A stretch of 64,000 nucleotides of DNA. Origin: a virus (Duplodnaviria > Caudoviricetes). The position numbers were made by a program, and so were the translations under genes. Shown here piece by piece: positions 11,860-24,287 of the stretch. The notes under the pieces were generated by a model, which was given only the letters and a program-made list of their open reading frames with translations, ran no database searches and was not told the origin of the DNA. Where the stretch lies: positions 60,567 to 124,566 of the IMG/VR virus record IMGVR_UViG_3300033066_001396; one strand, given 5' to 3'. Positions within the stretch are counted from its first letter, which is position 1; every line of letters starts with the position of its first letter.

Positions 11860-12329
11860 CATTATTAACACCAGAAAAAGCCAAGTTGCTTCTTGGTGAT
11901 CCAAACAAGGCAGAGGCAAAAAATTGCGCTCTGTGGGCAGCACCAACAAACAAGCGCATAGACAATATCCCCGTTAAAATATATATGAATAAGGCAATGA
12001 TTCCATATTGGAATACTGCTTATCTGGAAATATATGATAAGGGCGTTGGATCTTTGATAAAAACTTGGGATGGGTGTTTTAATATGAGACTTATTTACGG
12101 AACCAGACAATGGAGCTTGCATGCGTGGGGATTAGCGTTTGATATAAACGCACAAACCAATAAACAAGGAACAAAAGGAGATATGCCTAAAATAATTGTC
12201 GAAATTTTCAAAGAAAATGGTTTTGATTATGGCGGAGATTTTAAAGGAGCCAGAATTGATCCTATGCACTGGCAGTTAAAAGAAGAATTTTTAACATATT
12301 ACATAAATAAAACCCGAACATCAAAATGA
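11856..12329 (+). CDS. M15-family zinc peptidase (endolysin-like)
   Basis: GCFNMR, WSLHAWGLAFDIN (SxHxxGxAxD) and DPMHWQL motifs. Confidence 0.88.
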   Translation: MTLLTPEKAKLLLGDPNKAEAKNCALWAAPTNKRIDNIPVKIYMNKAMIPYWNTAYLEIYDKGVGSLIKTWDGCFNMRLIYGTRQWSLHAWGLAFDINAQTNKQGTKGDMPKIIVEIFKENGFDYGGDFKGARIDPMHWQLKEEFLTYYINKTRTSK

Positions 12330-13114
12330 TGATAAGACAAAGCAAGAATGTTTTTGGTTTTAATAAAGATGGAACTTTTTTTGGGGGGTGGCCTTCTATA
12401 AAAGAATGCGCAAGGAGCCTTAAAAGAGAGCCATCTACTGTGCGAGAGGCGATTAACAAAAGAAATTTTTGTAACGGATTGGTGCTTCAGTTTATACCAG
12501 AGTTCATGCCTATTGAAAAGCGAATAAGGTGCAGATCTGGTGTTCCTCCCAAAAAAAACGCCAAGGTTGTTCCAGACGAAAATACAGTTGTAGTGCCAGA
12601 TACAAATGGATATTATTATGTCACCAGAGATGGCAGGATAATTAATATGTATGGTAGAGAATTACAGCAAAAAACTACTCTTTGGTGTGAATACTTAACC
12701 GTGAATCTTCAAATAAATAAAAGAAAAACGCACAGGAGTGTTCATAGAATAGTCGCACAGGCCTTTTTGTCAAATCCAGAAAACAAATCACAAGTCAATC
12801 ATGACGATGGAAATAAAAAAAATAATAATATAAGCAACTTGGGGTGGATGACACCAAAAGAAAACATGAAACATGCTATTGATAAGGGTTTGTATAAACG
12901 ATACAATAATCAAACATACAAGGGTAAATTTGGCAAGGATCACAATAGGTCATTGGCCGTTATCTGTAAAAACACAGGTAATGTGTACGGAAGCATTTCT
13001 GAGGCGTCAAGAGAATTAAAAATTAGTATTTCAACAATTCATTATTCGATATCTAAAAAAGTTCCATTAAAAAATGGACTGGAGTTTTCTTATCACCAAA
13101 AGTTGATCAAATGA
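12326..13114 (+). CDS. HNH homing endonuclease with NUMOD-type DNA-binding repeats
   Basis: VHRIVAQAF, VNHDDGNKKNNNISNLGW; NUMOD1-like WPSIKECAR and YGSISEASREL segments. Confidence 0.88.
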   Translation: MMIRQSKNVFGFNKDGTFFGGWPSIKECARSLKREPSTVREAINKRNFCNGLVLQFIPEFMPIEKRIRCRSGVPPKKNAKVVPDENTVVVPDTNGYYYVTRDGRIINMYGRELQQKTTLWCEYLTVNLQINKRKTHRSVHRIVAQAFLSNPENKSQVNHDDGNKKNNNISNLGWMTPKENMKHAIDKGLYKRYNNQTYKGKFGKDHNRSLAVICKNTGNVYGSISEASRELKISISTIHYSISKKVPLKNGLEFSYHQKLIK

Positions 13115-14826: not shown

Positions 14827-14833
14827 TGCTTGC

Positions 14834-14964
14834 CTATAACGTATGGTGCTTGCCGAAGGGCGGATTTAGAATTACAAATGTTCAATTACTTACTTATGTC
14901 AAATAGAAATACTAATGTTCAGGGCTTGCACGTCAGCCCGCCTTTTGGCAAACACGTGTTAGGC
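14834..14964 (+). repeat. attC-like site A
   Basis: CTATAAC (14834-40) ... TTGCCGAAGGGCGG / CCGCCTTTTGGCAA inverted repeat ... GTTAGGC (14958-64). Confidence 0.7.
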
Positions 14965-16731
14965 GAAGATGCTTTTACGGTACTTTCCTTATTCGATGGA
15001 ATGTCGTGTGGCCAAATGGCTTTAAAACGTGCAGGGTTTAATATTACCAAGTATTATGCTTGTGAAATTGATAAATATGCTATACAAGTAACTCAAAAAA
15101 ACTTTCCTAATACGATTCAATTAGGAGATGTTACAAAAGTTTCGGCAAAGGATTTATCAAAAGTAAATTTGCTTATTGGTGGTAGCCCGTGCCAGGGATT
15201 TAGTTTTGCTGGTAAGCAATTAAATTTTGAAGACCCAAGAAGCAAACTGTTTTTTGAGTATGTGAGATTGCTAAATGAAATTAGAGAAATAAATCCTAAT
15301 GTACTTTTCTTACTTGAAAACGTGGTAATGAAAAAAGAGTATCAAGATATAATTTCGGAACATTTAGGCGTACAACCTATTTTGATTAATAGTTCACTTG
15401 TATCGGCTCAAAATCGCAAACGATTATACTGGACTAATATTGGTAAAATTTCACAACCAAAAGACAAAGGTATTACTTGGGGTGATGTAAGAGAACACAA
15501 TATAGAATGGGGTGCAATGTATTATACCGATAAAGCAATGGATTGGATAGGGAAACACGGAACAAGAAAAGGAAAGCCTTTGAAAATTCACGCTGATAAT
15601 GAAAAAATGCAAATGCTTGAAGCAAGTCACCACAAAAAATATAGTTCACAAAGGTTTTTTGGAATAATAGACCAACCTGCCCAAATAACTGGGCGTAGGC
15701 TTAATGAATTTGGCAAAAGAGAAGATTATAACAAAAATATCAAAACTACTCAATGTTTAGAAGTAAGAGGTGGCGATAAAGTAAATTGCCTTACAACTGT
15801 TCAAAAGGATAATGTAATTAGTGTATTACCAATAGGAAGATACCCTGATGTGTTTAAAGAATTGGAAGAGGGTAAGCATTATAGATACATTACTCCAATT
15901 GAATGTGAAAGATTGCAAACTGTACCTGATAATGAAATTATTTGTATATTTGCATTATGTTTAGACCGAGCAAAGAATTATGTAAATGCGGTAGAGCAAA
16001 ATCCCAAGTTGCTAAAACTTGCTTTGAGTGCCGAAAAAACAGAGTTGAACGAGTTTGTAAAACTTGTAATTCAAAATACATTACAAAGCAATCAACAAAC
16101 AAAGTATATTGCTCAAGTAAATGTAGATATGCAGATACAAATGCAAACAAATCAATGCACAGCAAACAATCAGAAAGACAGCAATATAATTGCAAACAAT
16201 GCGGCAAATATTGCGATGTGCAAAAATCAAAATATAGGGGCGGATTTTGTTCATCCAAATGTTTTTATAAATATAACAGAGGGGAGAATAACCCACTTTG
16301 GAATGGAGGAATTACACCAGAAAGGCAAACATTCTACAAATCAATTGAATGGAAACAAGCCGTTGCTCTTGTCTGGGAACGAGATAATGGAACTTGTCAA
16401 AGATGTAAATGCCGGAATAACAAGGGAAAAAGATATGAATTTCACATTCACCACATTATCAGTTTTAAACACAAACAGTTTAGAACTGATGTTAGCAACC
16501 TACTACTTGTTTGCAAAAAGTGCCATAATTGGATTCACTCAAAACACAACAAGTCAAAAGAGTATATCGGTTCAATTCAAAATAAATGATGGATACACAA
16601 GCATTGTAAGTAATTCTCAAAGGTACAGAATGCTTGGTAATGGTTGGACTGTTGATGTCATAAGTCATATTTTTAACCATATCAAAAAAGAAGTTTCAAG
16701 TTACGAGGGTGCTTCTTGCATTTTCGCCTAA
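14896..16731 (+). CDS. C5-cytosine DNA methyltransferase carrying a 220-codon in-frame insertion
   Basis: Motif I LSLFDGMSCG, IV GGSPCQG, VI LENV, VIII QNRKRLYW, IX ECERLQTVPD, X RYRMLGNGW. The start codon is uncertain (14830/14878/14896). Confidence 0.88.
   Translation: MSNRNTNVQGLHVSPPFGKHVLGEDAFTVLSLFDGMSCGQMALKRAGFNITKYYACEIDKYAIQVTQKNFPNTIQLGDVTKVSAKDLSKVNLLIGGSPCQGFSFAGKQLNFEDPRSKLFFEYVRLLNEIREINPNVLFLLENVVMKKEYQDIISEHLGVQPILINSSLVSAQNRKRLYWTNIGKISQPKDKGITWGDVREHNIEWGAMYYTDKAMDWIGKHGTRKGKPLKIHADNEKMQMLEASHHKKYSSQRFFGIIDQPAQITGRRLNEFGKREDYNKNIKTTQCLEVRGGDKVNCLTTVQKDNVISVLPIGRYPDVFKELEEGKHYRYITPIECERLQTVPDNEIICIFALCLDRAKNYVNAVEQNPKLLKLALSAEKTELNEFVKLVIQNTLQSNQQTKYIAQVNVDMQIQMQTNQCTANNQKDSNIIANNAANIAMCKNQNIGADFVHPNVFINITEGRITHFGMEELHQKGKHSTNQLNGNKPLLLSGNEIMELVKDVNAGITREKDMNFTFTTLSVLNTNSLELMLATYYLFAKSAIIGFTQNTTSQKSISVQFKINDGYTSIVSNSQRYRMLGNGWTVDVISHIFNHIKKEVSSYEGASCIFA
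15945..15952 (+). promoter_or_regulatory. TAnnTTTG promoter for the nested HNH gene (probably leaderless)
   Basis: TATATTTG lies 4 nt before ATG 15957, inside the insertion. Confidence 0.6.
15957..16589 (+). CDS. Zinc-finger HNH endonuclease nested out of frame in the methyltransferase
   Basis: Multiple CxxC / YCSxKC repeats, NPLWNGG, WERDNGTCQRC, HIHHI..NLLLVCKKCHNWIH. Confidence 0.9.
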   Translation: MFRPSKELCKCGRAKSQVAKTCFECRKNRVERVCKTCNSKYITKQSTNKVYCSSKCRYADTNANKSMHSKQSERQQYNCKQCGKYCDVQKSKYRGGFCSSKCFYKYNRGENNPLWNGGITPERQTFYKSIEWKQAVALVWERDNGTCQRCKCRNNKGKRYEFHIHHIISFKHKQFRTDVSNLLLVCKKCHNWIHSKHNKSKEYIGSIQNK

Positions 16732-16853
16732 CGGTAGGGCTTTGCGATGTGTGGGCATCGAAGCACAAAAGCTGAATAACCCACAAAAGCATCATAGAAG
16801 TACGATGCTGAATATTAGTACTTCTGCCACATATAGCAAAACCCCTGTTATAT
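16726..16853 (+). repeat. attC-like site B
   Basis: GCCTAAC ... GGGCTTTGCGATGTGTGG / CCACATATAGCAAAACCC ... GTTATAT. Confidence 0.72.
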
Positions 16854-17555: not shown

Positions 17556-17703
17556 ATATAACGGTAGGGATTTACGCTCGTTATTTTTAGCGGGATTAGA
17601 AGCAAAAACTTTAATAAACAACTAAATATAAATAAAATGAAACAGACATCAAAAAAAGCGAAAATGCCCGCTAAAAATAATGGCGTTAAATCTATTGTTA
17701 GCA
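17556..17703 (+). repeat. attC-like site C
   Basis: ATATAAC ... TTATTTTTAGCGGG / CCCGCTAAAAATAA ... GTTAGCA. Confidence 0.72.
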
Positions 17704-24210: not shown

Positions 24211-24287
24211 GGTGGCTGTAGTTCAGTTGGTAGAATATCAGATTGTGGTTCTGAGGGTCGAGAGTTCAAACCTCTCCAGCCACCCCA
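24211..24287 (+). tRNA. trnH: tRNA-His (GUG)
   Basis: Cloverleaf: G-1 plus GTGGCTG/CAGCCAC acceptor, TCAGA/TCTGA anticodon stem with GTG (24245-47), GAGAG-TTCAAAC-CTCTC T arm, discriminator C and encoded CCA. Confidence 0.95.

Follow-up and report, generated by a model that had tools for sequence, protein, structure and literature searches.

A stop-free HNH homing cassette in a phage C5-cytosine methyltransferase gene, probably tolerated by in-frame read-through

How can a phage gene carry a complete nuclease gene inside it and still form one open reading frame (ORF)? The question is raised by a C5-cytosine methyltransferase gene on a 64,000-nucleotide (nt) stretch of viral DNA (the window), taken from the latter half of an IMG/VR virus record of 124.6 kb (IMGVR_UViG_3300033066_001396; about 80% complete). 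Between motifs IX and X of this gene lies a 660-nt insert with a zinc-finger HNH endonuclease gene in another frame, and the methyltransferase frame crosses it with no stop codon. We consider it highly probable, from comparison with related loci, that the insert is a homing cassette tolerated by read-through: the methyltransferase would be translated straight through the stop-free insert and the nuclease would be made separately. A selfish nuclease gene would then spare its host gene by avoiding host-frame stops instead of by splicing.

The methyltransferase ORF (14830-16731, + strand) is one uninterrupted frame of 633 amino acids (aa). PF00145 covers its residues 49-368 (E = 1.6e-37), and in a genome-wide search the model was split around the insert, with positions 1-292 upstream and 291-324 downstream in the same frame. 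The part before the insert (14956-15930, +) contains motifs I (FDGMSCG), IV (GSPCQ), VI (ENV) and VIII (QNRKR), the target-recognition region, and motif IX (ECERLQTVPD); these motifs are invariant in alignment A1. The part after the insert (16591-16731, +) reads GYT..SNSQRYRMLGNGWTVDVISHIF, which includes the motif X helix, and ends with the stop codon. It aligns with insert-free homologues, with Pfam positions 291-324 and with the motif X helix of DNMT3A. The set of C5 methyltransferase motifs I, IV, VI, VIII, IX, and X is therefore complete in one frame. The nearest solved relatives are the catalytic domains of DNMT3A/3B, M.HaeIII, and M.HhaI. The true start is probably GTG 14956, because homologues begin 1-8 residues ahead of VLSLFDG, and the mechanical start at TTG 14830 is unlikely.

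The insert itself (15931-16590, +) comprises 220 host-frame codons, with junctions set against empty alleles, and sits exactly between VPD and (G)YT. The original prediction had described a GAT-bounded insert between motifs IX and X, with one GAT codon at 15928-15930 (+) and its repeat at 16588-16590, and both the insert-free alignment and the empty alleles agree with it. Insert-free relatives from Cellulophaga, Croceibacter, and Pelagibacter phages read ...ECERLQTVPD-N-YT..VSNSQRYKMLGNGWTVD, and insert-free homologues overall read ...ERLQTVPD-N/G-YT..VSNSQRY.MLGNGW. Removing the insert restores VPD-GYT, as had been proposed, and a natural empty allele (L071) reads CCT GAT GGA TAC. Over 15928-16590, we counted 0 stops in the host frame, in line with the claim of 220 open codons, and 26 stops in the third forward frame, the HNH frame being open. 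No Pfam or PHROG family matched the host-frame peptide of the insert.

The HNH homing-endonuclease gene (15957-16589, +) encodes 210 aa, from ATG 15957 to TGA 16587-16589, and is offset by +2/-1 from the host frame. A PF01844 match (E = 1.3e-8) and PHROG HNH families (best 2e-18) bear out the earlier claim of a complete zinc-finger HNH gene in a different frame. Three CxxC-type zinc-finger modules are followed by a GENNPLWNGG motif and then by the HNH core. All the zinc and catalytic Cys/His/Asn residues (C147, C150, H163/165/166, N181, C186, C189, H190, and H194) are invariant across alignment A2. An AlphaFold2 model built from six sequences reached a mean predicted local distance difference test (pLDDT) of 82, and the best solved fold match was the phage GVE2 HNH endonuclease 5H0M. 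With its beta-beta-alpha-metal core residues and CxxC zinc ligands, the predicted protein has what is expected of a PF01844 endonuclease.

Is the open host frame more than chance? In the -1 phase, the only source of a host-frame stop is an NTA or NTG codon of the HNH gene with a purine directly behind it. We resampled the HNH gene of the window synonymously, holding the HNH protein fixed, and 4.4-5.0 host-frame stops were expected, with P(0) = 0.003-0.004. This is much weaker than a naive AT-rich estimate, because a stop needs NTA/NTG plus a purine and aliphatic residues are few. The case rests on the family data rather than on the single window, and these data are decisive.

A search with the host-frame translation of the insert retrieved 48 database proteins, all of them PF00145, with 43-100% identity. 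Such a search sees open frames only, and loci were therefore collected with HNH-frame peptides alone (n = 57: 5 from IMG/VR, 49 from metagenomes, and 3 from metagenome-assembled genomes, which were Bacteroidetes, Bacteroidales, and Saccharibacteria bins). HNH identity was 41% or higher in these 57 copies, and every one of them occupied the same C5 methyltransferase site, between motif IX and G(Y/W)T...QRY..GN. Both frames were intact in 54 of the 57 loci, where the third frame had 7-38 stops. The three exceptions are decaying or mis-assembled copies: L058 (2300-3500) has a single frameshift that moved HNH and host frames together, L020 (1-1100) has one nonsense codon per frame and a second C5 methyltransferase gene directly downstream, and L031 (300-1250) has a nonsense codon in the HNH frame only, its host frame being intact. 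We dropped a reading of L058 as a decayed HNH gene with a preserved host frame, since a lone frameshift shifts both frames together. In the same phase, distant free-standing HNH relatives (L060, L061) contained 6 stops.

Among the 43 non-identical complete copies, every host frame was open (43/43), against 0.40 expected under a null of 5.0 stops per locus. In these copies, NTA/NTG never preceded an A-initial codon (0/458) and NTA never preceded a G-initial codon (0/295), which gives 0 stop-creating codons in 753 at-risk contexts. NTA/NTG accounted for 45% of NTN codons where the context was safe; in the host-exon control, the share was about 50%. Third positions of the HNH gene are near saturation (identity 0.34-0.5), so openness has been kept over a long divergence. 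Selection thus holds the methyltransferase frame free of stops. Stop depletion in homologous inserts, on which the original prediction could stand or fall, is strong, and the family-wide open host frames argue for its idea of a homing element that differs from introns and inteins and that the host gene tolerates by in-frame read-through.

The same data bear on whether the invaded methyltransferase is simply dead or dispensable, with a frame still open because the cassette is young and was copied as a unit. Phage methyltransferases are accessory genes, and some copies do decay (L020 and L058, besides L016 and L021, in which motif X is damaged). However, no host-frame stop is seen although protein identity between elements goes down to 41% and their synonymous sites are near saturation, motif X downstream is intact and in frame in nearly all invaded alleles, and the methyltransferase is the sole PF00145 gene in the phage record. 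We find this explanation very unlikely.

The cassette is mobile, as indicated by empty close relatives and by the incongruence between element and host. Among the 80 nearest methyltransferases in IMG/VR, ascertained by their N-terminal part, the site was empty in 79/79 with a readable C-terminus, including those 72-79% identical to the window enzyme. The most similar elements (L004 and L012, with 81-82% HNH identity) reside in hosts only 31-43% identical to that of the window. Element divergence is decoupled from host divergence, and the distribution is sporadic and disjunct. This is the pattern that homing into diverged alleles would be expected to leave.

What does the host-frame peptide contribute? 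We compared the frames on one HNH-guided codon alignment. Mean pairwise protein identity was 0.53 for the HNH frame, 0.345 for the host frame, and 0.337 for the closed third frame, and conservation in the HNH frame followed the normal coding pattern by codon position (2 > 1 > 3). The host-frame peptide is no more conserved than the closed frame; thus, only openness is selected and the spacer sequence is free. Spacers are hydrophilic and rich in N/Q/S/T. In 76% of loci, they exceed stop-free synonymous nulls in polarity, but the test is only suggestive because these nulls depend on the assumed codon usage. In an AlphaFold2 model of the read-through methyltransferase, pLDDT was 80-93 for the catalytic domain, 20-35 for about 100 central residues of the spacer, and 50-78 for its ends.

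These properties also weigh on a protein-level rival, in which the translated spacer is cut out afterwards through proteolysis or an atypical intein. This rival shares with read-through the translation across the cassette that the data call for, and two related methyltransferases (P0038 and P0039) hold true inteins at another site. However, Pfam detected no Hint/intein domain in the host-frame peptide, and the junction residues are not Cys/Ser...His-Asn plus Cys/Ser/Thr; they are N...D followed by G and vary across loci, in agreement with the earlier statement that intein termini are lacking. Moreover, a peptide as unconserved as a non-coding frame and predicted to be largely disordered is a misfit with a catalytic fold. 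We consider protein-level removal highly unlikely. Besides the HNH cassette, P0038 and P0039 (both among the proteins retrieved with the host-frame translation) hold a true intein that matches Hint/Intein_splicing, in one case with LAGLIDADG as well; it was inserted past motif IV, near position 71 of the Pfam model. An undescribed RNA- or protein-level route that excises the translated spacer, apart from known intron and intein chemistry, has in our judgement a slim chance; if it were true, these cassettes would be a third kind of self-removing intervening sequence.

Loss of the cassette at the RNA level has to be weighed as well; an unrecognised mechanism, be it self-splicing or host-assisted, would then leave a mature enzyme with no spacer. 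HNH genes are common passengers of phage group I introns, and a missing Rfam match leaves room for an undescribed ribozyme. However, the window gave no Rfam match at E up to 1, and no family reached the gathering score in 19 related loci. Only about 26 nt precede the HNH ORF and 1-30 nt follow it, less than 60 nt altogether, which upholds the earlier remark that an intron core has no room. RNA folds at the junctions are ordinary (z-scores 0.1 to -1.3). Insert lengths range from 636 to 708 nt and are multiples of three in 26/26 loci, and neither this nor the stop-free frame would be needed by an intron. We regard RNA-level removal as quite improbable.

The original prediction had also offered a ribosomal hop from GAT 15928 to GAT 16588 that would skip the cassette, in the style of T4 gene 60, and this part was not supported. 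In its favour, the window has matched GAT codons at both junctions and an HNH cassette is linked to a bypass element in T4 (gene 60/mobA). The T4 gap is 50 nt long and begins with a stop codon, whereas the gap here would be 660 nt (636-708 nt in the family). Matched junction codons were found in only 5/26 loci, all in the close subclade of the window, and a stop after the take-off codon in 0/26. No stable take-off hairpin was detected (junction fold z-score -1.3), and avoiding stops along the whole cassette would be needless. Hopping is, to our mind, barely credible. Both splicing and hopping would make stop avoidance pointless and are disfavoured on that ground too.

If the enzyme is read through, how is the nuclease expressed? 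As noted in the original prediction, the insert holds a TAnnTTTG motif, which is of the Bacteroidota -7 promoter type: TATATTTG, at 15945-15952 (+), spans -12 to -5 from the A of the HNH ATG and ends 4 nt before that codon. In the family, conserved promoter-like boxes end 4-6 nt ahead of the ATG. TAnnTT(T/C)G spanning -12 to -5 occurs in 6/37 loci, window included, and an extended -10 (TGnTAnnnT) starting exactly at -15 occurs in 17/37 loci, in the other clade, with its hexamer at -12 to -7 (A of the ATG = +1). Several other loci have a GGAG-type ribosome-binding site instead. In some sublineages (L016, L021, L029, L007, and L017), a box at -27 to -33 is combined with a GGAG-type ribosome-binding site before the ATG. 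Signal type tracks two well-supported element clades, and the cassette seems to swap expression signals between lineages. Although the leader of about 26 nt encodes no part of the HNH protein and its host-frame peptide is under no constraint, it has signals at fixed positions. Since the boxes sit at a fixed distance from the ATG, they suggest that the HNH mRNA is leaderless in many lineages, with a promoter just upstream of the ATG. For the window itself, confidence in a leaderless transcript is modest. A sigma-70 scan of the window showed nothing at the HNH start.

Two other expression routes were rejected. A -1 frameshift fusion of the methyltransferase N-terminus to HNH is excluded by HNH-frame stops 3-54 nt before the ATG in most loci, and no slippery heptamer was found. 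A separately translated C-terminal fragment was ruled out, as the 3' junction has no in-frame ATG and no restart signal.

Several observations weigh against read-through as we propose it. Taken alone, the window has an open frame with P about 0.003-0.004, which is unlikely only to a moderate degree. Because the loci share ancestry, fewer independent events lie behind them than the counts suggest. Confidence in the model of the whole read-through protein is low (mean pLDDT 54). The insertion point corresponds by homology to a place a few residues ahead of a DNMT3A helix, which we take to be that of the DNA-side dimer interface, and a 220-residue loop at this point might not be harmless. As for the promoter, TAnnTTTG is not enriched in the window (61 observed vs. 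59 expected), and the close relative L004 has a mismatch, with TGTATTTG in its place.

On balance, the scheme that we favour would work as follows. A mobile cassette, in which a short leader with an expression signal of its own precedes a zinc-finger HNH gene, has been inserted in register (660 nt) into the motif IX-X linker of the C5 methyltransferase. The nuclease lies in the -1 phase, and every NTA/NTG plus purine combination that yields a host-frame stop is avoided. Ribosomes would pass through the cassette, adding about 220 residues of unconstrained, hydrophilic, and largely disordered spacer, and would go on to the motif X helix; the product would be a full-length and presumably active enzyme, made with no splicing. 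The nuclease would be made separately, most likely from a leaderless transcript starting at its ATG. Its presumed target is the conserved ...CCN GAY / GGN TAY ACN... site of empty alleles, and repair of the cut allele would copy the cassette in.

Some further features of the methyltransferase gene and its surroundings were observed. A 15-nt inverted repeat (93% complementary) brackets the gene at 14958-14972 and 16718-16732; it reads GTTAGGC... at the gene start and ...GCCTAAC at the stop, and fits the integron attC core-site consensus GTTRRRY / RYYYAAC. GTG 14956 overlaps the GTTAGGC repeat. TAACGGTAGGG is found at 16729-16746 and again 830 nt downstream, at 17559-17576. Some related phages (L075, L078, and Croceibacter phage P2559Y) have tandem pairs of C5 methyltransferase genes, and in L075 and L078 a second motif IX-X block lies in another frame, about 850-930 nt past the first motif X. 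A second, unrelated HNH gene, free-standing, similar to homing-endonuclease genes and encoding 262 aa with HNH_3 and NUMOD1, is located at 12326-13114 (+), 1.7 kb upstream of the methyltransferase; thus, the phage carries at least two unrelated HNH genes. The only tRNA gene in the window is tRNA-His (GTG), at 24212-24287 (+).

These findings have consequences for annotation. Gene callers merge or miss the nuclease ORF, and database methyltransferases have distorted lengths and domain boundaries. The motif IX-X linker can probably accommodate about 220 inserted residues.

When compared to known systems, the closest case is the ShiLan domain of mycobacteriophage DNA methylases, a 202-codon in-frame insertion with a 195-aa zinc-finger HNH gene in a third frame (Arsenault, Gosselin & Gogarten 2025, PMC11855218; 2023, PMC9957025). 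It has no intron or intein features and a disjunct distribution, and the published analysis was computational only (PMC11855218). The same principle was therefore already in print in 2025, and the novelty of the element had been overestimated in the original prediction. PMC11855218 makes no mention of cytosine methyltransferases, Bacteroidota, or promoters, and our literature search found no further paper on the topic beside the ShiLan work.

We took the ShiLan gp65 sequence from NC_041988.1, the accession being traced via PMC10453261 and PMC3698066. As in ShiLan, the host frame of the window is stop-free and the insert is occupied by a zinc-finger HNH gene (about 200 aa), which has the same relative phase in both (host frame = HNH frame +1). 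Both lack intron and intein signatures and have a disjunct, horizontally transferred distribution, and in both the host-frame peptide folds poorly and the HNH frame well. The nucleases, which are only distant relatives, share an FCS-type zinc finger plus a GE(N/D)NP.W.GG module, with 23% identity over 157 aa (pairwise E = 2e-6; hhalign probability 84%). Besides, ShiLan gp65 carries an intein plus a hidden HNH, like P0038 and P0039.

The differences are also clear. The host is a PF00145 C5-cytosine methyltransferase here and a PF01555 N6/N4 methylase in ShiLan, and the HNH core is PF01844 here and PF13392 there. Three zinc fingers precede the HNH core in our element, whereas the order is finger-HNH-finger in ShiLan. 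The phages are AT-rich, of Bacteroidota-type and other environmental origin, in contrast to GC-rich actinophages, and the nuclease starts with an ATG after promoter-like boxes rather than with a GTG. A tblastn search at E = 10 had no Mycobacterium phage among the top organisms. The element is therefore not a ShiLan domain in the strict sense; it follows the same design with different nuclease and methylase families. It shares the in-ORF insertion, the open frame, the HNH gene in another frame, the lack of intron and intein signatures, and the disjunct spread.

We read this lineage as a separate, widespread, large, old, and mobile instance of the ShiLan-type design. The hidden-HNH strategy thus extends past mycobacteriophage N6/N4 methylases to C5 methyltransferases of environmental phages, Bacteroidota-associated ones included. 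What is added here is the quantitative stop avoidance, the unconstrained spacer, a code-based reason for the phase, and a hypothesis on nuclease expression. ShiLan alone gives P(0) = 0.022 for its open frame, and AT-rich genomes provide much stronger statistical evidence for selected openness than the published GC-rich case. The position-specific boxes, through a leaderless transcript, offer a testable answer to a question left open in the 2025 paper, namely how the hidden nuclease is expressed.

The design recurs in Pacc40 gp60, a second and independent out-of-frame nuclease-like ORF in a read-through methylase gene (PMC11855218). Pacc40 gp60 differs in its host, a helicase-methylase fusion, in its insertion site, and in its 160-aa ORF with a weaker HNH assignment.

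Our element also resembles several other systems in part. T4 mobA/gene 60 is likewise a mobile HNH cassette in a coding gene that stays functional with no RNA or protein splicing. Unlike T4 gene 60, where ribosomes hop over a gap that opens with a stop, our element has an open frame and no conserved bypass signals. In Aeromonas phage Aeh1, nrdA is split into two polypeptides by mobE, a free-standing gene for an HNH homing endonuclease. Like our element, mobE is lodged in a conserved phage gene, but it yields two separately translated genes, whereas here one frame is continuous with no stop and restart. Finally, HNH inteins and group I introns also home into a conserved site of a conserved gene and spare the function of the host. 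Our element differs from them in having no Hint domain, no ribozyme core, and a nuclease in another frame, and it would spare its host gene through stop avoidance and not through splicing.

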